From Chthonomonadales bacterium (GTDB lineage Bacteria; Armatimonadota; Chthonomonadetes; Chthonomonadales; Chthonomonadaceae): a stretch of 12,962 nucleotides of DNA. A program made the position numbers and the translations under genes. The DNA is taken from positions 1-12,962 of the forward strand of contig JBBQPO010000177.1 in assembly GCA_038217285.1 (NCBI GenBank), given 5' to 3'. Below the pieces are notes generated by a model that was given only the letters and a program-made list of their open reading frames with translations, did not search any database and had not been told where the DNA came from. Shown piece by piece: positions 1,493 to 12,817 of the stretch (within the stretch, counting starts at the first letter, position 1; the number at the start of each line of letters is the position of its first letter).

Positions 1493-2530
1493 TCAGGGCT
1501 GGGAGTTTGTGCCGCTCTCGGGCGCAAGAAACGGCAGGAACGCGACCTTTTTCGTGGTGAAGTTGAGCACGACGCGAAATCGGGCGAGGAAGTCGAGGCC
1601 AAGCACTGCGGTTTCCCGGCCGAAACCGGGCCTGGTATCGGCGGAGAGGTAGGCGACCCGCAGCGCTTTGCACTCCGCTTTGCCTACCGAGACCAGCGGA
1701 ACCTGAATCAGCGTCGCCTGGACCACTGCCCCCCCGGCCCCACCTAACTTCACGACCTCCAGCGGAAGCAGTTTCAGCTTTTCTCCGACGGACGCCGGGA
1801 TGAGCGTCAAGACGGTTCCTGTATCGAGCAGCGCCATAAAAGGTTTCGACTTCGGCAGCGACATCGCTACGTAGATGCGCCCATCGCGCAGAGTCATCGG
1901 GACGACGATGGCGCCTGCGGGCATTTTCACCTGCGGTTTGTCCAGCGAGCAAACATTGTGAGACACATCGAGCGTGACCTGAAACGCCGCCAGAAATGGG
2001 GTGCCCAGCCAGCCTACGGGGGCATCGGGATGGGGAGCGTGGGAGAGCAGCGAGACCACATCCACCTGCGCCATCGGAACGTCTTCCAGCTTCAACAGGC
2101 CGATCTGCAGACTCTTCAGCGTGGTTTCCGTCGCCTCTACCTCGCGGTCCAGAATATCGACACGTACTTTCGTCGTGCCTTCGGGGATCCTCAAACGCGC
2201 TATTGCGGCAGGACTGACGGTATTGGCGTTCATTCCCGTGGTAATTCCGAACCGCTCCGAGTTACCGTTAACCGTGATAATCGCGCTAGGGAACCCGAGC
2301 CAGGCACGCAGATTGAGGCTGACAGGCAGCACCGGACTCGCGGGCAGAACAATCGGGATCTGAAAAGGAGCCGTCGAAGGCGGTTGGGTAGCAGGCGTCG
2401 CAACCACAGGCGGCGGAATATTCGGAGGCTGTTGCCCCCACAGACCACAGACAGGAAAGCATAGCAACACTCCACAGAAGAGCGTGGCAGCGATGATATT
2501 TCCAGGCATAGGCGCCCCGTTCCATTTCAT
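1493..2530 (-). CDS. Secreted retropepsin-like aspartyl protease with two tandem domains
   Basis: N-terminal hydrophobic signal and Pro-rich linker. Domain 2 has ALLDTGT ... AVLGLDFL. Domain 1 has FGITTG ... GWLGTPFL. Confidence 0.8.
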   Translation of the reverse strand: MKWNGAPMPGNIIAATLFCGVLLCFPVCGLWGQQPPNIPPPVVATPATQPPSTAPFQIPIVLPASPVLPVSLNLRAWLGFPSAIITVNGNSERFGITTGMNANTVSPAAIARLRIPEGTTKVRVDILDREVEATETTLKSLQIGLLKLEDVPMAQVDVVSLLSHAPHPDAPVGWLGTPFLAAFQVTLDVSHNVCSLDKPQVKMPAGAIVVPMTLRDGRIYVAMSLPKSKPFMALLDTGTVLTLIPASVGEKLKLLPLEVVKLGGAGGAVVQATLIQVPLVSVGKAECKALRVAYLSADTRPGFGRETAVLGLDFLARFRVVLNFTTKKVAFLPFLAPESGTNSQP

Positions 2531-2542
2531 ATCGTCGGCCCT

Positions 2543-2989
2543 CTAGCGGTGATTCTGTTCGACGATCTGCTTGATCGCATCGAGGGCCAACAGATAGACC
2601 AGCGTCCCGAGCCCGACGATCTGCCCGGCCACAACAGGCGAGATAACGGAGCGATGCCGGAACTCCTCGCGGGCATGAACATTGGTCAAGTGTACTTCTA
2701 TGGTTGGAAGGCGAACTGCCGTGATGGCGTCGCGAATGGCATAGCTATAGTGCGTAAACGCGCCGGGATTGATGACAAGGCCGTCGGCGCTAGCCTTCGC
2801 CTCGTGGATGACATCGATGATCTCGCCTTCGTGGTTGGACTGGAAGATACGGACTTCCATTCCGTTGGCCTGCCCTCGCACCTTGATCTTCTTGTTGATA
2901 TCGTCGAACGAGTCGCGCCCATAAACCTCGGTTTCGCGGTTGCCGAGCAGATTCAGGTTCGGGCCATGGATCAGGGAAACTCGAATCAA
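2543..2989 (-). CDS. aroQ: Type II 3-dehydroquinate dehydratase
   Basis: [44 protein letters not shown] and [16 protein letters not shown] motifs. TTG start with GGAGG RBS at 2995-2999. Confidence 0.97.
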
Positions 2990-3003: not shown

Positions 3004-3276
3004 CTATTTAATCGCGATGCTTGCGGGGTCGGCATCGGCGTTTAGAACGGTCGCTTCGTCCACCAGCAGAATGGGGATGCCGTCCCGAATGGGGAAAGCG
3101 TAGCGTCCGCAGGCGCAGTTCAGGGTGTTCTGGGCGGTATCGAGGGTCACCGCGTGATGCTGGGTGCAGCCGGGACAGGCCAGCAGCTCCAGAAACCAGG
3201 GATCGAGGGTCTGCGGCGCGGCCTTTTCCGGACTGCTCCCGGCTGCCCGCGCAGCGGATTCTTCTTGGGTCCTCAT
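3004..3276 (-). CDS. Trm112/YcaR-family small zinc-binding protein
   Basis: [14 protein letters not shown] ... [24 protein letters not shown]. Start moved to the ATG at 3276, 7 nt after the GT4 stop; the ORF track's 3402 start overlaps GT4. Confidence 0.85.
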
Positions 3277-3283
3277 CTCTTCT

Positions 3284-4423
3284 CTATTTCCTGTCAATTG
3301 CTGCCTGGTAGACTTCGAGCGTGCGGTGCGCGGTCGTCTCCCAGGCGAAGCGCGCGGCACGCAGGGGGCCACGGAGGGCCAGTTCACGGCGCAGCGCCGC
3401 ATCGTCCACGATGCGAAACAGGGCTTCGGCCCACGCTTCCGTATCGGTCGCCGGGACGATGAGCGCGGCTTCCCCGACGACCTCCGGCAACGCGGGCCGA
3501 TCCGACACCACGACCGGCGTCCCGCAGGCCATCGCTTCGAGCGGCGGGAACCCGAACCCCTCGTAGAGGGCCGGGTGCGCGAGCGCGGCGCAGGCGCGGT
3601 AGAGCCTGGGAAGGTCGGCGTCGTCTACGTAGCCGGGAAAGCGCAGGGCCAGCACCGCGATGTCCTCGCCACCCGCTTCGGCTTCGTCCCGCAGCGCGTT
3701 CTCCTCCGTTCCCCACCCCGCTTTGCCGACAAAGGCCAGGGTATGCGGAATCTCGAACCTCTTTTTCGCCTGCCCGAACGCCCGCGCCAGCATCCGCAGA
3801 TTCTTGCGGGGCTGCATGACGCCGACCGCCAGCAGGAAGGGCTCTGTCAGGCCATACTTCTCCGCGACGAACTGCCGTGCTTCGTCCGGGTCCACGTCCG
3901 TCCCGAAGCCTTCCGGCAGCCCGAGCGGAATGGCGATGACCTTCTGTTCCGGCAGCTTGTAGAGGCGCAGAATATCGGCGCGCGAGCTTTCGGAATCGGT
4001 GATCACGCGGTCGGCCTGCCGCATGGAGGGCGGCACGGTCAGGTTCATCAGCAGCCGATGTTTGAGCGGGAACCAGTGCGGATAGAGCCGAAACGAAATG
4101 TCGTGCACGGTGGTGACGACCGGGCAGGGGCAGAGCCTGCGCGGCGGGATCGTATACTGCACATGGATCAGGTCCGCCCGGTCCTGTCGCGCCGCATTGG
4201 GCAGGGCGGTCAGCGTCCAGAGACGTTCGTTCCGCGCTTCTATGACACGGCGCTCCACGTTCGGCAGGTCCGGCAGTTCGCCCTCCGGGATCGGCGCGCG
4301 GCTATAGACCAGAAACGTATCGTCCGGCGCAAGTCGCGGCATCACGCTCAGCAGGCTGCGCCAGTACGTGCGATCCCCGGTAAACCGTCCCGTCAGCGTC
4401 CGCCCATCAATGGCTACGCGCAC
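3284..4423 (-). CDS. Glycosyltransferase family 4 (GT-B fold, MtfB/WbaZ-like)
   Basis: MRVAIDGR start, VVTTVHDISF, ITDSESSRADI, VGVMQPRKN and the signature YEGFGFPPLEAMACGTPVVVS. GTG start with AAGGAGG RBS at 4431-4437. Confidence 0.95.
   Translation of the reverse strand: MRVAIDGRTLTGRFTGDRTYWRSLLSVMPRLAPDDTFLVYSRAPIPEGELPDLPNVERRVIEARNERLWTLTALPNAARQDRADLIHVQYTIPPRRLCPCPVVTTVHDISFRLYPHWFPLKHRLLMNLTVPPSMRQADRVITDSESSRADILRLYKLPEQKVIAIPLGLPEGFGTDVDPDEARQFVAEKYGLTEPFLLAVGVMQPRKNLRMLARAFGQAKKRFEIPHTLAFVGKAGWGTEENALRDEAEAGGEDIAVLALRFPGYVDDADLPRLYRACAALAHPALYEGFGFPPLEAMACGTPVVVSDRPALPEVVGEAALIVPATDTEAWAEALFRIVDDAALRRELALRGPLRAARFAWETTAHRTLEVYQAAIDRK
4256..4301. repeat. Direct repeat copy A, inside the GT4 5' coding region
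   Basis: CACGTTCGGCAGGTCCGGCAGTTCGCCCTccgGGATCGGCGCGCGG; 44/46 identical to 4777-4822. Confidence 0.95.
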
Positions 4424-4435
4424 CCTACAGCCTCC

Positions 4436-4540
4436 TTACCCTTCATCAGCAAGAACGAGTGCAGGGCGCAGTTTTGTATCAGACAGGTCTGAAAACGGAA
4501 AAGTGACAAGAACTACTTGACCGGCTGCAAGTGCTGCCAC
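4436..4540 (-). pseudogene. Truncated PemK/MazF-family toxin (34-aa N-terminal remnant)
   Basis: Manual translation from GTG at 4540 gives MAALAAGQVVLVTFPFSDLSDTKLRPALVLADEG*. This matches the PemK/MazF N-terminal pattern G-x-V-V-L-V-x-F-P-F-S-D-L-S-x-x-K-x-R-P-A-L-V-L. It overlaps the upstream antitoxin-like gene by 28 nt. Full-length toxins are about 110 aa. Confidence 0.85.
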
Positions 4541-4731
4541 GCTTCTTCCTCCTCAGGTCGATCCCAGTCTTCTGCAAGTGCGGCCTCCGACAACAGCGCA
4601 AGTTCGTTTGCACGCAACGGAGGTTCTTCGAGTATCATGACGAGTGCTCGACGTGCCTGCGGTAATGTGAGATTTTCGATTAACCGCACTGTACCTGTCT
4701 CGTCCACAATGGCTTCCAGAGTGTGAATCAT
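4513..4731 (-). CDS. Putative type II antitoxin (acidic 72-aa protein, DUF2281-like C-terminus)
   Basis: AAGGAG RBS at 4741-4746. N-terminal EAIVDETGTVRL beta-hairpin and acidic C-terminus LLSEAALAEDWDRPEEEEAWQHL. Directly upstream of, and overlapping, a PemK/MazF-like ORF. Confidence 0.7.
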   Translation of the reverse strand: MIHTLEAIVDETGTVRLIENLTLPQARRALVMILEEPPLRANELALLSEAALAEDWDRPEEEEAWQHLQPVK

Positions 4732-4776
4732 CCTTTACGTCTCCTTATAAGCTTCCTTGATTGGCGTCTTTTGTTG

Positions 4777-4822
4777 CACGTTCGGCAGGTCCGGCAGTTC
4801 GCCCTGCAGGATCGGCGCGCGG
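4777..4822. repeat. Direct repeat copy B, a stray GT4 fragment abutting the ATPase stop codon
   Basis: CACGTTCGGCAGGTCCGGCAGTTCGCCCTgcaGGATCGGCGCGCGG. The first 29 nt are identical to copy A, with 2 mismatches in total. Weaker similarity continues to about 4831. Confidence 0.95.
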
Positions 4823-5962
4823 TTACACCAGGCGGGCGACCAGGCTCTCTGTCTCCGAGTGAAACTTATCCAAAAGAGAACGTTGGGTCACACCTTTGAT
4901 TCCCATACGCGATGCCGCGACGTTCAAAACGTCATAACTCTCAGTCACGCGTATATCACTCAGCGGATCGAGGGTTCCCGCTCGCCAGTTGACGGTTTCC
5001 GCTTCTGCTTTGGCGACAGCACGCTTCTCCTCAAGGTAAAAGCGGTAAAGCCTGAGCGCATCGTCAGGCGATTGAATGGGAGGCAAACTAATCGTCTGTT
5101 CCAGCCTGCCCGCCAGTGCTGGCAGCATTTGCGAATATCTTCTTCTCGCATCCGGTGTCATGGCGAGTAAGAGAAATAAATGTTTAGGCAGTGCGTCAAT
5201 TAACGCCCGAATAGCTGACAGATAACGCACAACAACCGTAAGAGATTGTGCTCCTTGCTTTTCGAGTTCGTCAAGAAAGAGAAAGAGAGCCTTAAAGCAA
5301 CCTACGTCCAGGCTAAGGTACACCAGATCATGCATGGCTTGGGTCTTAGATTCAGTGGTATCCAGCCGGAACTGAACCCCAGTCTCCTCGGTGTGGCGCT
5401 TGAAGACGCGAAGCCCCATCAGATATTCAAGTAACAGTTCTGCCCTATGTTCAAGGTCAACACTGGTATCCCTCGCTAGTCGTGCGAATGCGGCCCGTAA
5501 TTCTGGGTTTTGTACGTTCGCTAGTAAAGACGCACGTTCGGACTCAGGGTATACCGCGAGTGCTTTGGACACACGGACTAGATGCTGCACACCGAACTCC
5601 TGCATTATACGACGAACGACCGCACCAAAATCCGGTTCAGGGTCTGCATAATAACGTACAATGTAGACACCCTCGTCCGCTGAATATATCTCTGCCAGTT
5701 CCCTTTTGTAGTACTCAAGAAGATTGGTTTTGCCAGTACCTTGTGTACCCTCGACGACAATAGCTTGTGTATTATGGTCGCTTATGAACGCTTGAAGTCT
5801 CTCGATAGCGAGATTGTCGACATCGGTTACGAGATGCGGATGTCCCATTGGCTGACTCGCTGGGGGAAAAGGATTCTCCAGTACGCCAAAGCGCTGGTAT
5901 AGGGTTTGGCGTCTGTTCGGACTTTGGCCTTCAACAAGTCCAAGTCGATCACGAAGACTCAT
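4823..5962 (-). CDS. P-loop (AAA+-like) ATPase, BrxD/DUF2791-like
   Basis: N-terminal ENPF, Walker A GTQGTGKT (aa 72-79), Walker B LFLFLDELE (D231-E232) after a long helical insertion, and ALAGRL (possible Arg finger) followed by ISLPP. ATGA overlap with the upstream gene. The family call comes from motif resemblance, not a search. Confidence 0.8.
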   Translation of the reverse strand: MSLRDRLGLVEGQSPNRRQTLYQRFGVLENPFPPASQPMGHPHLVTDVDNLAIERLQAFISDHNTQAIVVEGTQGTGKTNLLEYYKRELAEIYSADEGVYIVRYYADPEPDFGAVVRRIMQEFGVQHLVRVSKALAVYPESERASLLANVQNPELRAAFARLARDTSVDLEHRAELLLEYLMGLRVFKRHTEETGVQFRLDTTESKTQAMHDLVYLSLDVGCFKALFLFLDELEKQGAQSLTVVVRYLSAIRALIDALPKHLFLLLAMTPDARRRYSQMLPALAGRLEQTISLPPIQSPDDALRLYRFYLEEKRAVAKAEAETVNWRAGTLDPLSDIRVTESYDVLNVAASRMGIKGVTQRSLLDKFHSETESLVARLV

Positions 5963-8031
5963 TGGCGTTTTCTCTCAATCTGAATTCTTACGCTTGCTCT
6001 ACCGCCATACAGAAAGTCGCCATGGTAGAGCCGGTATACGCGGACGGTCGGGCTGCCATCTTCATCTCTTTCAAGAACGGCTAGTTTGTGATCCTCAAAG
6101 CGGGTTTCAATAGTTGAACCTTCATAGTACCGTTCAACAAGTCCGCTCTCGTGCGCCCACTGAAGCATGTGACGAGTCGTCACCGGGTGGTACTCGAACC
6201 GAAGTGCTAATTCTTCGAGCCATGCTCCGGTTAAGACCCATTGGTCGCCTTGTGACAAGGTCTGGTAGGCAATGATAGCCTCATTAGAGAATTGCTCGAC
6301 TGTAGGATGAATTCCGGTTATACAGATGCCTTTACCAGGGATTGTAAGCGCCAATATCGATATTTCGGACAGTACTTTATAGGCGTTAAAGGTACTTCGC
6401 CGCATATACGGAGCAGAATCCCACTCAGGAACACGTTGGTGTCTTGTCAATAATTCCATAAACTCGATGAAAGTCGGAATTCGCATAAGTAGAAGAGCGA
6501 TTCCGGAAATATTCAAGGTTGTTATGGCGGTTTGAAGATCGTCAAGCAGCGGTTCCTTGACCAATTCCTCGCCTCTCTTAATTAGAAAGCCTCCGGATCG
6601 AAGAAAGCTGGCATACTCCGTCAACGACGTGATACCTAGATTTTCTTTCGCTGTAGCTATGTTCATGGTCCCGTTCCGTGATAACTGTTCAACAAAGCGC
6701 AATAGCATCGGCACGGAGATTACCAAGCTACTGATTCTTTTGAATGCCAATACACTATGGGAAGGCATCGATGGCTCGGATACTGTGGCCTCTGTCTCAA
6801 CTACTATGTCCTCTTCAGCGGTTGCATGAATAAAACCTTTTTCAGCAATCGAATGAGTGGGCACAACTGGTGCGGTCCATCGGCACCACAAGAGGTTTTC
6901 TCTCGATTGGTACGGAAACCAGTGCAGATCGTCCGCCATCGCAGTGACCTGAAATTCGCCATCCTTATGAACCAGGCGTGCGCTCCCAAAGCATGTCGCG
7001 AGTTCCCAAAGAACGTCTGTCAGAGAAACGGTATACAGTTGCGTGGTGAATGGGTGAAAGAGAGTGCCTGTTAATTTTTTCCCGATGGGATTGGCTGTTT
7101 TCCGCGCATCGAAATAGATGGGCACCATTCCTTCTGCCAGGACCATTCGTGCAAGCCCCTGGTCGCTTGTCAGAACGCAGACTTTATGGTCTGGGCTGAG
7201 TTGCGCCTTGTGTTCCCGTGCCGACTCGAATACGAGGCGATCCGCAAGACTGCGCTGGACGACCGACAGACTCGTCTCGGTGATCTCTGAATCAGGCTTA
7301 AATATCGCGCGCAATGGGTCTGGCCCTACCATCGGACGTTCCACCTCGATGTCGGAATGCCATTCGAGCCTAAGAAGTGCTCGTTGTGTCCCCTGACTGT
7401 CCAAATGTTCAGAGAGACTATTGACCACGGATTGAAACGTCGGGCTCGATTTTCGGCGTAGACTGAGAAAGCGATCAGCCATATTAAGAATTTCAACAGG
7501 TACAACGGCAGGAACCTTGATTCGTGCCATTGGGTAAAGAAACCGACAGGCGAAGTCGAGGGCGCCTTGCTTTACCGCACTTGTATCAAGAATGAGCGTT
7601 GATGGGGTTCGGAAAGGCATATCACAAATTATGCCTGGGTCGAATATAGGTAGAAGCAGCAATAGCCTTCGTGTAATATCTTGTAGTGCCTCGAACAGAG
7701 CTTTCTCGGCCTTCCCAATCGCTGCCAATTCTTTGTCTGTGAATTTGCGAGAGCTGTGGTACAAGCAAGTCTTCAGGTCAGAACTGAGTTGATCAGTCGA
7801 TGGTAAGGTCCAAGAAAACTGGCCCGATCGAATTGCAGTGATGATCGGATCAGATTGAGTAAGCTCCCCAATAGTGGATGGGTGTAAGTCTATCGTACCA
7901 ACCGGTAACCACGGCGAAGCAGCAAAGCATTTGTCTTCGCTTACTTCGAGACGCAGAGTGCGGCAGTCACCTATAGTTGCAGCCAAAAGTGGAAAAGCCT
8001 CGGTTGGATTGCTTAAGGTATATTCTGTCAT
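5959..8031 (-). CDS. Large PIN-domain nuclease with putative C-terminal winged-helix-like domains (690 aa)
   Basis: PIN acidic quartet in canonical contexts: LILDTS (D149), VPAVVPVEI (E180), ADRLV (D264), VLTSDQGLA (D290). The C-terminal helix-helix-GLV/GFL-strand patterns resemble wHTH domains (inference). Confidence 0.75.
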   Translation of the reverse strand: MTEYTLSNPTEAFPLLAATIGDCRTLRLEVSEDKCFAASPWLPVGTIDLHPSTIGELTQSDPIITAIRSGQFSWTLPSTDQLSSDLKTCLYHSSRKFTDKELAAIGKAEKALFEALQDITRRLLLLLPIFDPGIICDMPFRTPSTLILDTSAVKQGALDFACRFLYPMARIKVPAVVPVEILNMADRFLSLRRKSSPTFQSVVNSLSEHLDSQGTQRALLRLEWHSDIEVERPMVGPDPLRAIFKPDSEITETSLSVVQRSLADRLVFESAREHKAQLSPDHKVCVLTSDQGLARMVLAEGMVPIYFDARKTANPIGKKLTGTLFHPFTTQLYTVSLTDVLWELATCFGSARLVHKDGEFQVTAMADDLHWFPYQSRENLLWCRWTAPVVPTHSIAEKGFIHATAEEDIVVETEATVSEPSMPSHSVLAFKRISSLVISVPMLLRFVEQLSRNGTMNIATAKENLGITSLTEYASFLRSGGFLIKRGEELVKEPLLDDLQTAITTLNISGIALLLMRIPTFIEFMELLTRHQRVPEWDSAPYMRRSTFNAYKVLSEISILALTIPGKGICITGIHPTVEQFSNEAIIAYQTLSQGDQWVLTGAWLEELALRFEYHPVTTRHMLQWAHESGLVERYYEGSTIETRFEDHKLAVLERDEDGSPTVRVYRLYHGDFLYGGRASVRIQIERKRQ

Positions 8032-8038
8032 TTCGTCT

Positions 8039-8491
8039 TTATCGAATCATAACCGATAGGCCCGGAACATTTCCAAAGACCTCAAGCAGCCAGTGCAGAT
8101 GGTGATACAAGGCTATGGTAGGCGAGCAACGGAGCGAAGAATCTTCATCGAAGTTGTCCGTCTGCACAGTGTCTGTCCAGTTACATGCTGTCTCTTCGTT
8201 GGTCAGCTGTTCCAACCGTTCGATAACTTCTGCCAATTTCCCGAAGTTCCTCTGTTGCGGCGACAGGCTAGCGGCGAAGGATGAAAATAGTAATGTCCGA
8301 AGTTCTGCACGAAGGGGTTCGTCGGTAATCCCAGCCAATACGTCTTGCTCAGGCGACCAGGAGTAGACGACCTCCTGTAGTTTGGCAGAAATAAAAGTCT
8401 GGGGATCTTCAGTAGTACCTACGGTCATGGGGTAATGTAGATCCCGATCAGATCGGAAGGGGTGCCAGACAGTGAGACGGAATGTGTTCAT
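8039..8491 (-). CDS. Hypothetical protein (~150 aa), first gene of the low-GC operon
   Basis: Open frame ending 7 nt before the PIN gene start. The ATG at 8491 is preceded by GAGGTGG; an alternative ATG lies at 8512. No recognisable motif. Confidence 0.7.
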   Translation of the reverse strand: MNTFRLTVWHPFRSDRDLHYPMTVGTTEDPQTFISAKLQEVVYSWSPEQDVLAGITDEPLRAELRTLLFSSFAASLSPQQRNFGKLAEVIERLEQLTNEETACNWTDTVQTDNFDEDSSLRCSPTIALYHHLHWLLEVFGNVPGLSVMIR

Positions 8492-8654
8492 TACCACCTC
8501 GGTTAGGTCCATTTAGGACAGGATTAGCGTTGATGGATATACTTTTCGCGAGAAGGCAATTGAAATCCTGCTCAATCATGTGCTTTCAGATCAATGCAGT
8601 TCTTGATACTGCCATCCCGAACCAGATATTCAGGATATGAAAGGCGTAGAGAAT

Positions 8655-10604
8655 CTAGCCACCGCCGCCGAAATCGGGAGTGGGTTCGGTGTCGTGGAGG
8701 CGTTGATTGGCGGTATCGAATTCGGGAAAACCGGCACCTTTTTCAATAGCGTCGCGCCACTTCGCGCGGGCCCCTTGTAGGTCACCTTGCTTTCGAAGAT
8801 CATCGCCGTCCTGAATCAGGCGTTGGGCATCCTGACGCCGCTGGGCAAGGAACGCATTCGGATCCTGTGCAGGAGCGACGGGAGGCGCGAAAGCGGGGTT
8901 GATCGGCGCACGGCTGTCGAGCTTGGAGGGGGGCTCCGGACCGATAGGGGCCGAATCGACGGCGTTGCGCTCATCCTGGGCACCGCTCTTGTCGCCAAGG
9001 CTCTGTTTGACGTTGGCGAGCTCGATATGGGCGGTCTGGTAGTCCGGCTGATACTGCAGGGCTCTGGCAAAGTCGTCGCGGGCCTCGCTTAGTTTGCCAT
9101 TGGTGCGCGCGGCACGGCCCAACTGCGTGTAGGTGTAGGCCAGGTTGGAGTTGAGAAGGGCGCGCTGCGCTGGCGTCGGGGCTGCGGTCAGAGCCTGCTC
9201 GTAGTCTTTGGCGGCGGTGACATAGTCCTGCGTATTGTAAGCCTGTTCGCCCTGCGTCATCAGGGCAGCGACCTGCTGCACCTGCGCGGTCTCCGTATAG
9301 CGGTTGAAACTCTTGAGGAAGAGCAGGACTCCCCCGGCGAGCAGCCCGCCGAGCAGCACCGCGACCCCGACGGAGACCAAAAACTGACGCGTTCCAGGCG
9401 AGAGTGTAAAGGGTGGCGCCTGCGGTTGAGCGGGGAAATTGGGGGCGGCATAGTGCGGCGGCACGTTCGCGGGATAGATCGTCTGCGGATACCCCTGCAC
9501 GGCCTGCGTCTGCGGATAGTGCGTGCCGCCGGAAACCTGCCCTGGGGCAGGAGTGCCGCCGTTGTTCCAGCCCCAGGGCAAGTTTCCGGCGGGAGCCTGA
9601 GGCGCAGGCGCGCCAACCGGCGCGTAGCCCGGCAGCGGGGGCACCGCGCCGTAGCCGCCACTGTAGCCTCCCGAAGGCGGACCCGGGGGCGGATAGGGCG
9701 TAGAGTTGCCTCCTCCTCCTCCACCGGCCCCATAATAGCTTCCCATGCCCGTCTGCCCCATGTGAGTCGGCTGGCGCGGCAGAAAAATGGCGGGCGTCTG
9801 CTCGGCGGCGCGCAGGTCGCGCTTCATCTGGTCGGCGGAGGCGGGGCGTTGATTCGGGTTTTTTGACAGGGCGTTCCGAACGACCTGTTCGAGTGCCGAC
9901 GGAAGGCCCGCGAGCGGCGGCGGCTCGGCGTTCATAATGGCGTAGGTGATCGCCACGACGCCGTCCCCCACGAACGGCTTGCGCCCCGCCAGCATCTCGT
10001 AGAGCACCACGCCCAGCGAGAACAGATCGGAGCGATGGTCCAGCCCGCGCCCCTCGATCTGTTCGGGAGACATGTAGCTGGGCGTTCCGAAGATTTGGCC
10101 GTCCGCCGTCAGGGCCGATTCATCGGAGAGGCGGGCGATGCCGAAGTCGGTCAGTTTGATCTGCCCACCGGGCAGGACATGGATATTGTCGGGCTTGATG
10201 TCGCGGTGGATGACTTTTTTGGAGTGCGCGTAGGCGAGCGCATCGAGGATCTGGCAGACCACCTCGATGGCTTCGCGCAGAGGGTAGGAGCCGCGCACCT
10301 GCATGGCGTCCCGGAGCGACTGGCCCTCCAGGTACTCCATCGCGATGAAGTAGCGGCCGTTCTCCTCTCCGAAGTCGAAAACGGAGACGATGTTGGGGTG
10401 ATCGAGGCGACCGGCGGCGCGGGCCTCGCGGTTGAACCGTTCGACACGGTCGCGCCGCGCCTGACCGGTGAGGCCGGGCACGAGGTTCAACTCTTTGATG
10501 GCGATCCGACGCCCCAGCGTGACGTCTGTCGCCTCATAGACGATATCGTTGCTGCGTGCAATCTCCCGCACAATCCGATATTTGCCTTTGATCGTATCCA
10601 CCAC
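8655..10604 (-). CDS. Hanks-type Ser/Thr protein kinase with one transmembrane helix and a C-terminal TPR region
   Basis: IAIK, HRDIKPDN, DFG, GTPSYMSPEQ and SDLFSLG motifs; G/P/Q/Y-rich linker; TM segment FLVSVGVAVLLGGLLAGGVLLFL; TPR helices. Probable GTG start at 10604 (or 10601) after GGAG at 10611-10614; the ORF extends to 10655. Confidence 0.92.
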   Translation of the reverse strand: MVDTIKGKYRIVREIARSNDIVYEATDVTLGRRIAIKELNLVPGLTGQARRDRVERFNREARAAGRLDHPNIVSVFDFGEENGRYFIAMEYLEGQSLRDAMQVRGSYPLREAIEVVCQILDALAYAHSKKVIHRDIKPDNIHVLPGGQIKLTDFGIARLSDESALTADGQIFGTPSYMSPEQIEGRGLDHRSDLFSLGVVLYEMLAGRKPFVGDGVVAITYAIMNAEPPPLAGLPSALEQVVRNALSKNPNQRPASADQMKRDLRAAEQTPAIFLPRQPTHMGQTGMGSYYGAGGGGGGNSTPYPPPGPPSGGYSGGYGAVPPLPGYAPVGAPAPQAPAGNLPWGWNNGGTPAPGQVSGGTHYPQTQAVQGYPQTIYPANVPPHYAAPNFPAQPQAPPFTLSPGTRQFLVSVGVAVLLGGLLAGGVLLFLKSFNRYTETAQVQQVAALMTQGEQAYNTQDYVTAAKDYEQALTAAPTPAQRALLNSNLAYTYTQLGRAARTNGKLSEARDDFARALQYQPDYQTAHIELANVKQSLGDKSGAQDERNAVDSAPIGPEPPSKLDSRAPINPAFAPPVAPAQDPNAFLAQRRQDAQRLIQDGDDLRKQGDLQGARAKWRDAIEKGAGFPEFDTANQRLHDTEPTPDFGGGG

Positions 10605-10718
10605 GTCGGTCTCCGGTTCGGGGAAGGCACAACGGCGTGGAGCGATACGCAACACGGCCTGCGCTCAGTTCACGGCAACCCTGCCTATTATACGCGATGC
10701 GGTGCGGAAATTGCACCG

Positions 10719-11732
10719 TTAGCCTCGACCGAACAGTTTCCGGAAGCCGGTCGCCGGGGCAGCCGATTGCGGTGGTTCGGCGGCAGGCTGAGCGCTCCCG
10801 CCATGCGTCAGAGACGCTTCGACGCCGTTCAGGGCGGCCTGCGGGGGTTCCGCGGTGCAGGGGCGAAGCTCGCGCACCGCGATCACGAACGCCGTGATAT
10901 TGTCCCGTCCGCCCCGCGCGTTGGCGAGTTCCAGAAACTGCCGGGCGGCTTCGGAAGGCGCATGGTTTCCGGCGATCTCGCGGATCTCGTCGTCCGCCAC
11001 ATAGCCGGTTAGCCCGTCCGAACAGAGCACCCAGACATCGCCGACGCGGGCCTGCTCCTCGAAGAACTCCGGCTCGACATTCGGCATCGCCCCGATGGAG
11101 CGTGTGATCACGTTGCGAAACGGAGACATCTCGGCGGCCTGACGGGTCATCAGTCCGGCGCGCACCTGCTCCTCCACCCACGAGTGGTCGAGCGTCACTT
11201 GCCGTACCGCGCCGTCCCGGATCAAATAGGCGCGGCTGTCGCCCACCTGCGCCACGACGACGCGATCCTCGATGAAGACCACACCGGTCAGGGTGGTGCC
11301 CATGCCGTTGCGCTCCGGGATCATCTGCGCCAGGCTGAAGATATAGTCGTTCGTGGCGACGATGGCGTCGTAGAGAGCATTGACGAGATCAGGAGCCGCG
11401 CTGTCGTAGTAGTTGGCAATGAGCTTCTTGAGCATCGTTTCGCTGGCGATCTGACCGGCCTGCGCCCCTCCGATGCCGTCCGCCACCGCGTAGAAACAGC
11501 CGCGCGCCGCCAGAATCCCCGGCGCTTCCGGCTCATAGAACTCAAACTTGTCCTCGTTGTTTTCGCGCACCTGCCCCATGTCGGTCTTGGCCGCGAACTT
11601 GACCACCGGCACGCAGCGCGGTATCACCGGCTCGTACTCCCGCCAGCCGCGCACAAGCTCGGCCCGGTCGAACTTCGCGGTCGGCTCCTGCCCATTGGGG
11701 GTGGCGAGGCTATAAACGTCGGTATCGCTCAT
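10719..11732 (-). CDS. PP2C/PPM-family Ser/Thr phosphatase (PrpC/Stp1-like)
   Basis: TDMGQVRENNED, VADGIGG, MGTT, VGDSRAY, TLDHS, RNVITRSIG, LCSDGL and GGRDNIT motifs. ATGA overlap with the FHA gene. Confidence 0.95.
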   Translation of the reverse strand: MSDTDVYSLATPNGQEPTAKFDRAELVRGWREYEPVIPRCVPVVKFAAKTDMGQVRENNEDKFEFYEPEAPGILAARGCFYAVADGIGGAQAGQIASETMLKKLIANYYDSAAPDLVNALYDAIVATNDYIFSLAQMIPERNGMGTTLTGVVFIEDRVVVAQVGDSRAYLIRDGAVRQVTLDHSWVEEQVRAGLMTRQAAEMSPFRNVITRSIGAMPNVEPEFFEEQARVGDVWVLCSDGLTGYVADDEIREIAGNHAPSEAARQFLELANARGGRDNITAFVIAVRELRPCTAEPPQAALNGVEASLTHGGSAQPAAEPPQSAAPATGFRKLFGRG

Positions 11733-12817
11733 TCCGCGTGGTTCTCCGGCAGGACAGAGGTTTCCAGTCCGGCGCCTTCGGCATAGGTGTCCGCTTCGGC
11801 GGTAGGCGGCTCGGTGGAAGCCGCGACGGGCGTGAAGCGATAGCGGGTCTGTCCGAGCTGCACCTCGTCGCCTTCCAGCAGCAGTTGGCGCTCGTCGATG
11901 ACCAGCCGCTGTCCGTTGACGAAGGTGCCGTTGGTGCTGCCTGTGTCGGTCAGATAGGTTCCCGTCGGGTCCGTCGTAATCTCCGCATGCCGCCCCGAGA
12001 TATAGGCGTCGCTGGGGAAGACGAGCGTGTTTCCGGCTCGTCGGCCAATCGTGATGGTCGTCGCCGTGATCGTGATGTCCGGCGACGGCCCCTGCTCGTT
12101 GTGCAGCATCGCGACAACCGGGCCAGCCGCCTCCGGCTCCAGCGGAGGCGGCGCGGGAACAGCGCCCTCCGCTCCGACAGGCGGGATGCCGACGATGGAC
12201 CGATCCTCTGTCGCAGGCGTTCCGACAATCGTCCTGTCGCTGAGGACGACCGTTTTGTCCGCCTCGCCCGCCGCTCCGCCGCCGATCTCCAGACGCGCCT
12301 GCCAGTTGCCGAACTTCAGCACGGTTCCCGCCGGCGCGCTCGTCGGCTGGTTCGCGCTGAGGCGCAGATCTCCTACCTTCGTGCCGTTGCTGCTGCCGAG
12401 GTCTTCCACCGTGACGCCGCCATTTTCGAGGGTGATCTGGGCGTGATTGCGCGAGATCGTCGCGTCGGTAATGAGCACGTCGGTACCCTGCCGTCCGACC
12501 GTGTTGACGCCGACATGCAGTCGGAAGCGCCGTCCGTCGGCCAGATCGATCAGTTCGGCGGGCCCTGCCTCCTGCGGAGGCAGGGCCGTCTCTTCCGGCG
12601 GAGCGGAGGTCAGCAGAAATCCGCAGTCGCCGCAGAACGGCTCCATAAGCGGCGTGACCGATTTGCAGACCAGGCAGCTCGTCGTGCCGCCCATCTGCGT
12701 CCGCATCGGGTCGCCCCCCATCTGCTGGGTCGGCATGCCGCCCCCCGGCACGACCATCGTCCGATCAGGAGACGGCGCGACCGCGCCCATGACTCGTGTT
12801 GCCTCGATGTTGCTCAT
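11729..12817 (-). CDS. Zinc-ribbon plus double FHA-domain protein
   Basis: CLVC ... CGDC zinc ribbon. FHA1: VGR ... ISRNHA ... DLGSSNGT. FHA2: IGR ... ISGRHA ... DTGSTNGTFVNG. Confidence 0.92.
   Translation of the reverse strand: MSNIEATRVMGAVAPSPDRTMVVPGGGMPTQQMGGDPMRTQMGGTTSCLVCKSVTPLMEPFCGDCGFLLTSAPPEETALPPQEAGPAELIDLADGRRFRLHVGVNTVGRQGTDVLITDATISRNHAQITLENGGVTVEDLGSSNGTKVGDLRLSANQPTSAPAGTVLKFGNWQARLEIGGGAAGEADKTVVLSDRTIVGTPATEDRSIVGIPPVGAEGAVPAPPPLEPEAAGPVVAMLHNEQGPSPDITITATTITIGRRAGNTLVFPSDAYISGRHAEITTDPTGTYLTDTGSTNGTFVNGQRLVIDERQLLLEGDEVQLGQTRYRFTPVAASTEPPTAEADTYAEGAGLETSVLPENHAE

Follow-up and report, generated by a model that had tools for sequence, protein, structure and literature searches.

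Several described immune systems come close to the locus analyzed in this work. In type 2 BREX, BrxD is an ORC-Cdc6 AAA+ ATPase of the standalone kind, for which the loading or activation of a helicase has been proposed (PMC12839542). ORC/Cdc6 ATPases also pair with triple-winged-helix recognition proteins, as exemplified by SspB-SspC, and with DndG-like proteins and restriction-type nucleases (PMC10853773). In MANTIS, a BREX-related type 2 system, the ORC/Cdc6 ATPase MtsA needs a small protein, MtsB, of unknown function (10.64898/2026.09.23.753747). Menshen (NsnA-NsnB-NsnC) includes NsnA, a ParB-DUF262 protein, and NsnC, which has an inactive PIN-like domain and separate nuclease domains (PMC12065111). 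The locus described here, found in a Chthonomonadales bacterium, consists of three genes designated A, B and C, which encode a small protein of no known fold, a PIN nuclease with a winged-helix region, and an AAA+ ATPase of the ORC/Cdc6 clade, respectively. They are located in a 12,962-bp stretch of DNA, hereafter the window, that is one entire contig (JBBQPO010000177.1) of a 6.2-Mb, 459-contig assembly (GCA_038217285.1). With slightly better than even confidence, we interpret the three genes as a horizontally acquired, self-contained immune cassette with anti-phage or anti-plasmid activity, in which an ATP-gated, winged-helix-guided PIN nuclease would carry A as a bound regulatory subunit. 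The gene order, co-inheritance, folds, catalytic residues, empty insertion site and predicted A-B contact on which this interpretation draws were all computed here.

The three open reading frames (ORFs) are on the minus strand: A at positions 8039-8512 (157 aa), B at 5959-8031 (690 aa) and C at 4823-5962 (379 aa). A gap of 7 nt separates the A stop codon (8039-8041) from the B ATG (8031), and the C ATG (5962-5960) and the B TGA (5961-5959) overlap as ATGA. The original prediction, which was made from the sequence of the window, had described this tight, co-oriented array, and its coordinates, gap, overlap and residue numbers (D149 in B and K78 in C) were all correct. The public gene call for C is a 341-aa protein (P0273) with a start 38 codons downstream of position 5962; since the N-terminal MSLRDRL and NPFP motifs are invariant in homologues, the start at 5962 that yields the 379-aa protein is the real one. 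In gene A, a second ATG at position 8491 is preceded by a Shine-Dalgarno-like GAGGTGG, and the homologue alignment begins near there. Judging from these features, A may consist of 150 aa instead of 157 aa. The only space for an operon promoter is a 142-nt leader upstream of A (8513-8654, minus strand), which would be its presumptive location; a promoter scan on this strand and a terminator scan gave nothing above shuffled sequences.

The GC content, calculated in 500-nt windows, is 0.446-0.536 over positions 4751-8500 and 0.56-0.70 in the flanks, with ~49% for the insert. A DNA comparison of the complete window with four congeneric genomes showed the same site without the cassette in two of them. 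In contig C409 of genome G004, the regions aligned to window positions 4440-4734 and 8652-10307 are separated by 63 bp, and in contig C439 of genome G003 those aligned to 3339-4734 and 8655-8873 are separated by 98 bp. The empty sites, which join approximately position 4734 to 8655, indicate that the segment at about 4736-8654 (~3.9 kb) is an insertion that contains A, B and C and nothing else. The low-GC insert of the original prediction was confirmed by both the GC profile and the empty sites. The insertion is placed between a small resident ORF and the stop codon of a Ser/Thr kinase gene. No tRNA gene was found at the insert, no convincing direct or inverted repeats were found at its ends, and there is no recombinase gene (transposase or integrase) within it or at its ends. 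Among 40 other related genomes searched, B was present in one. The small resident ORF (4513-4731, minus strand, 72 aa) lies just outside the insert in DNA that is 67-88% identical in the congeners, and its product has no Pfam match at E<=1. It had been taken for part of a decayed toxin-antitoxin module next to the cassette, a notion that these data do not uphold.

One genome per species was scanned for the cassette, and 80 of the 110 loci with a B relative were kept. They belong to at least ten phyla, including Cyanobacteriota, Pseudomonadota, Acidobacteriota, Binatota, Spirochaetota, Planctomycetota, Myxococcota, Thermodesulfobacteriota, Nitrospinota and others. A C homologue is located directly downstream of B in 79 of the 80 loci, the exception being L066, where B is truncated. 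Upstream of B, tblastn detected an A homologue in 73 loci, and clustering added three more (L036, L040 and L075). Of the four loci where no A was detected, L060 and L074 have a full-length B match; in L078 and in L001, which lies at a contig end, the match lacks its N-terminal part. Clustering of the 954 ORFs from the 80 loci showed that only A, B and C recur across lineages, while the other recurrent clusters correspond to local synteny among Nostocaceae. A fourth gene is thus not conserved, and the cassette is no piece of some larger operon. For A, B and C of the window and of 58 loci, pairwise distance matrices are correlated (Spearman rho 0.81-0.83), with none of 499 permutations reaching values as high, which indicates that the three genes are inherited together. 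The three-gene synteny anticipated for the homologues is therefore kept, in the order A-B-C, in nearly all of the 80 loci. A quick IQ-TREE phylogeny of B is mostly arranged by phylum, with 11 label changes versus a minimum of 9; its mixed clades place one Acidobacteriota row beside Acetobacter and one Nitrospinota row beside Thiomargarita, and Binatota, Acidobacteriota and Spirochaetota rows fall within Pseudomonadota. Copies that look damaged were also observed. Two ORFs make up B in L040 and in L070, and L066, with its truncated B, has no C. In L037, transposase genes of the insertion sequence (IS) type separate the A match, about 1 kb upstream, from B; the B match is broken and C lies about 1.4 kb past the best B segment.

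At E<=1, nothing in Pfam, NCBIfam or PADLOC matched protein B of the window, the Pfam PIN families included. Its sequence found no match in PDB, and its profile returned only chance-level rows (E 0.5 or worse). Among 8000 candidates examined, 282 were full-length relatives at E<=1e-3; the sources name them "hypothetical protein" and, in a few cases, "PIN domain", and PF13638 was detected in a few homologues. No fused or longer forms were found, which is weak evidence on this point. The nature of the protein was read from a structure model built on 118 sequences, with a mean predicted local distance difference test (pLDDT) value of 90.1. From the N-terminus, the model and the comparisons based on it delineate an alpha/beta domain followed by a long helix (residues 1-125; 7657-8031, minus strand, as are all coordinates of B segments), with residues 50-73 forming part of the predicted A-binding surface in the co-fold; a PIN nuclease domain (residues ~140-318; 7078-7614) that includes D149, E180, D264 and D290; a beta-rich domain (residues 319-390; 6862-7077), with residues 318-334 in the predicted A interface; an unalignable linker of variable length with pLDDT below 50 (residues 393-428; 6748-6855); and a winged-helix region recognized by fold comparison and secondary structure (residues 439-690; 5962-6717). 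The best PIN match, over residues ~142-317, was the structure 3i8o (Z 11.3, root-mean-square deviation (rmsd) 2.8, 129 aligned residues), followed by the archaeal PIN-ATPase PINA (5f4h, Z 9.1), the Rrp44 PIN (Z 8.4-9.1), the SMG6 PIN (Z 8.8) and VapC15 (Z ~7.5). Residues 439-510 match MarR-type winged-helix chains (Z 7-8.5, rmsd 1.2-3), and two further helix-helix-helix-hairpin units appear to follow, up to residue 690; in this model-based reading the region would comprise three units. The four acidic residues D149, E180, D264 and D290 are invariant in the 118 sequences and in 59 of 59 cassette copies, and T150 and T288 are likewise invariant in the 59 aligned copies. B thus combines the PIN fold with the metal-holding acidic residues characteristic of PIN nucleases, and the fold matches to PIN and MarR chains agree with the original description of B as a PIN nuclease with winged-helix domains.

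Protein A (8039-8512, minus strand; model pLDDT 88.6) matched no family in Pfam, NCBIfam or PADLOC. Foldseek comparison of its fold with PDB reached E 0.52 at best, VIA-align run on 48,161 chains retrieved generic helical bundles with a best Z of 6.2, and there was no usable match in ESM Atlas. The absence of fold matches falls short of showing that the fold is new. A profile search against 1.84 billion representatives recovered 260 proteins at E<=1e-3, 235 of them at E<=1e-10. Nearly all of the 150 listed are 100-200 aa long, with a few reaching up to 298 aa. From these counts and lengths, the A family is small and sharply bounded, with no evident fusions. Residues W16, R88, W141 and P150 are invariant in 46 sequences. 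Co-folding of A with B gave a score of 0.87 in all three runs, compared to 0.00 for the best of three controls; in the calibration, which is rough since custom alignments were used, 58 of 80 solved complexes and 2 of 110 mismatched pairs attained this mark. The runs agreed in at least 94% of the contacts and the partner pLDDT was at least 73. In the predicted interface, A residues 49-56 and 104-152 face B residues 50-73, 126-136 and 308-334, and the B segments flank the PIN domain on both sides. Residues that are invariant or nearly so in this interface are Y50, W52, W141, F146 and P150 of A and P128, F130, D131, L320, G322, F325, P327 and F328 of B. The modeling supports that A binds B beside the PIN domain, and it gives substance to the small accessory partner that had been proposed.

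A small protein predicted to sit beside a PIN domain recalls toxin-antitoxin pairs. The cassette could be a three-part addiction module maintained by post-segregational killing, with B as the PIN toxin, A as its bound inhibitor and C as a regulator or chaperone. As in VapBC pairs, the gene for A lies upstream of that for the PIN protein, with translational coupling between the two, the small upstream gene product is predicted to bind the PIN protein, and the PIN acidic residues are intact; in addition, the cassette behaves as a selfish, patchily distributed unit. However, VapBC is a two-gene module composed of a small PIN toxin and an antitoxin with a DNA-binding domain; the cassette has three genes, including an invariant ATPase that is retained in 79 of the 80 loci, and B is a 690-aa multidomain protein with extra nucleic-acid-binding domains. 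A has no Pfam match and none of the known antitoxin folds, including those that bind DNA. The interface residues named above do not include the catalytic acids, with the unnamed ones being uncertain in this respect, and no plasmid copy of the cassette was found. We consider an addiction module unlikely, and since many toxin-antitoxin modules also act in defence, this explanation overlaps the immune cassette that we favor.

Protein C (4823-5962, minus strand) has the features of an AAA+ ATPase of the ORC/Cdc6 clade: a Walker A motif, GTQGTGKT, at residues 72-79 (5726-5749, minus strand), where K78 is located, a Walker B motif, LFLDE, at residues 228-232 (5267-5281, minus strand), with D231-E232, conserved arginines, and profile matches. 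G75, G77, K78, T79, D231, E232 and the arginines R252, R275 and R286 are invariant. Near the N-terminus, an NPFP motif at residues 30-33 (5864-5875, minus strand) has N30, P31 and P33 in 59 of 59 copies and F32 in 58 of them. The intact PIN catalytic residues and Walker motifs noted at the outset are thus present in the window and invariant in all 59 copies. The C protein of the window has weak TniB, NACHT and ORC1/Cdc6 matches in addition to those to AAA_16 and AAA_22; its sequence found a single row in PDB (E 0.78), and the best row for its profile was an NB-ARC protein (E 0.0097). When 56 cassette C homologues were scanned one by one, AAA_16 was matched by 51, AAA_22 by 48, NACHT by 35, ATPase_2 by 28 and KAP by 18. 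PF10923 (BrxC_BrxD, formerly DUF2791), scored at a threshold of E<=0.01, was found in 28 of the 56, with a best E of 1e-9, and among PADLOC models mad8 matched 16, PifA 10 and BrxD one. The sources name C relatives "Orc1-like", "Cdc6-like" or "DUF2791". The designation of C as a BrxD-like, DUF2791-type ATPase therefore stands for the family, half of whose examined members match PF10923, and for the clade, with a likeness to BrxD that is distant; the protein of the window itself has no PF10923 match at E<=1, and the PADLOC BrxD model recognizes one of the 56. On the basis of these profiles, C appears not to be a BrxD orthologue.

As neighbors of the cassette we took, in 64 loci, the two closest ORFs of 100 aa or more to its left and to its right, with one representative taken from near-identical Nostoc neighborhoods. 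Of the 227 neighbor ORFs, 89 had a Pfam match at E<=1e-8; among these, 36 are clearly related to defence or mobile elements and 8 more are ambiguous, and they are spread over 30 of the 64 loci. Restriction-modification and BREX-like neighbors include four Eco57I-type methylases, XamI, an N6_N4 methylase, PglZ, DUF499, two DUF1156 proteins and DndB. Abortive infection and toxin-antitoxin functions are represented by AbiEii, Abi_alpha, three VapC-type PIN proteins and RHS, and nucleases and helicases by three SNF2/ResIII proteins, a protein with Helicase_C only (L079), two Uma2 proteins and PDDEXK_9. The mobile-element neighbors are TrwC/AAA_30, NikA plus relaxase (twice), four transposases, an integrase, a resolvase and a reverse transcriptase. 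The rest of the annotated neighbors belong to common metabolism or housekeeping. A proportion of 36 to 44 in 89 would be well above the usual genome-wide background, and it is from this context that we infer a defence role. Four loci have genes of BREX type or related to BREX immediately next to the cassette: PglZ with AbiEii and an SNF2 helicase in L061 (1923-11189), DUF1156 in L072 (9260-12205) and L080 (9176-9505), and DUF499 in L074 (1726-4563). Relaxase genes (TrwC, or NikA plus a MobA/VirD2-like gene) adjoin the cassette in L052, L053, L056 and L068, which correspond to two Paraburkholderia genomes and two metagenome-assembled genomes. This arrangement suggests carriage on integrative or conjugative elements at these four loci; no plasmid record matched.

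Several observations weigh against the interpretation as an acquired immune cassette. The neighbor count has no matched control, the ORF calling was crude, and 138 of the 227 neighbors have no Pfam match and in some cases are probably spurious. Many loci are found amid housekeeping genes such as those for argininosuccinate lyase, AlaRS, pyruvate kinase and NadA. B had no match by tblastn in 72,556 PLSDB plasmids and 50,697 INPHARED phage records, nor in the IMG/VR viral contigs, so that the typical carriage on mobile elements was not seen. The arrangement of the B tree mostly by phylum indicates that transfer between phyla has been moderate. The cassette lacks a modification gene for self/non-self discrimination, and the C protein of the window scores below the Pfam curated cut-offs (27.0 versus 32.6 for AAA_16 and 26.2 versus 27 for AAA_22). 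The defence-island setting raised for the homologues is favored by the share of defence and mobile-element genes among annotated neighbors, and weakened by the missing control and the housekeeping surroundings of many loci.

The relaxases, transposases or integrases beside some loci, together with the weak TniB and ORC matches of C, are compatible with a nucleic-acid-processing module that serves a mobile element or the host in replication, transposition-target selection or RNA turnover, with C resembling the TniB, TnsC and IstB helpers. The insert, however, has no transposase, integrase, terminal repeat or tRNA, a fourth gene is not conserved in the surroundings of up to 6 kb that were covered, and plasmid, phage and viral-contig collections contain no match. 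The patchy distribution, with B in one of 40 relatives, speaks against a housekeeping role. A processing module is, in our estimation, decidedly unlikely.

Shango (SngABC) is characterized by a TerB protein and helicase partners. No PADLOC Sng model matched A, B or C at E<=1, and neither A nor B has a helicase or TerB Pfam match. With BrxD of type 2 BREX, C shares the condition of a standalone ORC/Cdc6-type AAA+ ATPase of similar size and no extra domains, but its partners are A and a PIN-winged-helix nuclease rather than the BrxHI helicase, PglX, PglZ and PglW. None of the type 2 partners (PglX, PglZ, BrxC, PglW and BrxHI) is found in the insert or conserved in the 80 loci, and PglZ is a neighbor in one of the 64 loci. 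The absence of the usual BREX and Shango partners, pointed out in the original prediction, thus holds for both the insert and the homologous loci. The cassette might still be a fragment or satellite of a larger known system (type 2 BREX, a BREX-related system or Shango) that depends on the genes of that system, as the distant BrxD likeness of the C family and the PglZ, DUF499 or DUF1156 genes adjoining four of the 64 loci (L061, L072, L074 and L080) could suggest. Against this, no BREX or Shango partner is conserved, the insert in the window has A, B and C only, and PADLOC shows no Sng or Brx match for A or B; we regard such dependence as very improbable.

The systems that couple SspB- or DndG-type proteins to an ATPase have a similar make-up: an ORC/Cdc6-clade ATPase, a tandem winged-helix reader and a nuclease. 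In the cassette, a single protein joins the nuclease, here of the PIN type, to the winged-helix region; the cassette also adds a specific small third protein and has no modification enzyme. DndG, SspB and FokI are absent among the matches listed for the whole-B fold comparison, where, of the winged-helix region, only the unit at residues 439-510 gave listed matches. A structural counterpart of the N-terminal part of B is SiRe_0806 of Sulfolobus islandicus (PDB 9jxx/9jxw), which was crystallized with cyclic tetra-adenylate. Residues 1-389 of B superpose on its residues 151-401 (Z 14.2, rmsd 3.6, 234 aligned residues), that is, on its non-CARF part. The two proteins share 12% identity; the initial 150 residues of SiRe_0806 find no equivalent in B, which has in addition the winged-helix tail and the adjoining ATPase partner. 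No paper on SiRe_0806 was found in the literature.

Menshen also has three genes, with an ATPase and a PIN-like domain. In the cassette, however, the PIN domain appears catalytically intact from its residues, there is no ParB/DUF262 match, and no PADLOC model matches A or B. Menshen models are presumably included in PADLOC 2.0.0. The available account of MANTIS presents a comparable principle, in that an ORC/Cdc6 ATPase and a small accessory protein load or activate an effector on DNA; by that account it has a methyltransferase and a PLD-helicase nuclease, which set it apart. Menshen, DndFGH, BREX types 1-4, MANTIS, and DefensePredictor DS-3 and DS-5 were considered as identities for the cassette and rejected by what is available of their descriptions.

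PADLOC 2.0.0 has no model that matches A or B at E<=1, and only weak matches for C. A full-text literature search found no paper describing the A-B-C triad, although supplements may list it. Both results agree with the original view that the combination is not a recognized named system. The cassette may nonetheless have been named in some catalogue or supplement: catalogues have expanded fast after PADLOC-DB 2.0.0 (2023), and supplements to the comparative genomics studies of Aravind and Krishnan hold many ORC/Cdc6-centered neighborhoods (PMC10853773, PMC12839542). This is rather improbable, considering that the searchable literature did not yield the triad and that the B family appears in the sources as "hypothetical protein" or "PIN domain". 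By analogy, the cassette fits the theme of an ORC/Cdc6 ATPase acting with a winged-helix reader and a nuclease, and its composition, in which PIN and reader form one fusion, a small subunit is unique to the cassette and a modification enzyme is lacking, appears to be uncatalogued.

The rest of the window encodes functions of other kinds. The cassette sits directly after the stop codon of the kinase gene in an operon-like signaling run on the minus strand (8655-12817). In this run, the Ser/Thr kinase, which carries TPR repeats, is encoded at 8655-10655, a PP2C phosphatase at 10719-11732 and a double-FHA protein at 11729-12817. On the other side, beyond the small resident ORF, lies a gene for a family-4 glycosyltransferase (3284-4423, minus strand; Glycos_transf_1, E 2e-28; GT4-conflict, 2.6e-14). 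It is overlapped by a longer plus-strand ORF of 442 aa (3164-4492), without matches, which probably represents a shadow ORF such as GC-rich DNA can contain. Family matches identified, further along, a type II dehydroquinase (2543-2989, minus strand), a protein of 345 aa that carries retropepsin-like aspartyl protease domains (1493-2530, minus strand), a type VI secretion Hcp protein (876-1280) and a Kelch-repeat protein (192-764).

Of the anti-phage, NTPase-gated nuclease module put forward in the original prediction, the architecture, the character of a unit and the lack of a name were sustained; the anti-phage role is read from the genomic context, and the gating, like the order of events and the substrate, is part of a mechanism that we infer. 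B would be the effector and probably also the target recognizer, with its tandem winged-helix domains binding nucleic acid. ATPases of the C type oligomerize on nucleic acid or load partners onto it. A, a small subunit seen in this cassette only, would clamp the surface next to the PIN domain of B, and in the uninfected cell the A-B complex would be kept inactive. The winged-helix region or A would then serve to sense a cue from the invader, by which C would be recruited or switched, and C would use ATP to license PIN cleavage of either the invader nucleic acid or host RNA. Cleavage of host RNA would abort the infection.

Going one step further, we tentatively propose, at somewhat less than an even chance, that the cassette represents a new immune family. 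Its PIN nuclease, guided by winged helices, would have a BrxD-type ORC/Cdc6 ATPase as an ATP-driven loader or switch, and A, with its previously unseen fold, would be an invader-sensitive latch bound next to PIN. Such a family would operate with no modification enzyme, would be distributed in more than ten phyla, and would have been overlooked so far on account of its absence from plasmids, phages and the model hosts in common use. Given the clean empty site and the invariance of the catalytic residues, the predictions lend themselves to direct testing. Should the cassette protect against phages, its three genes would make up a compact system with direct coupling of a BREX-type ATPase to a nuclease, and this system would offer a simple handle on the role of BrxD-like ORC/Cdc6 ATPases in immunity, which is still unclear for BREX. 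A would then represent a new fold class of nuclease regulator, and B would be a case of nucleic-acid-guided PIN cleavage.

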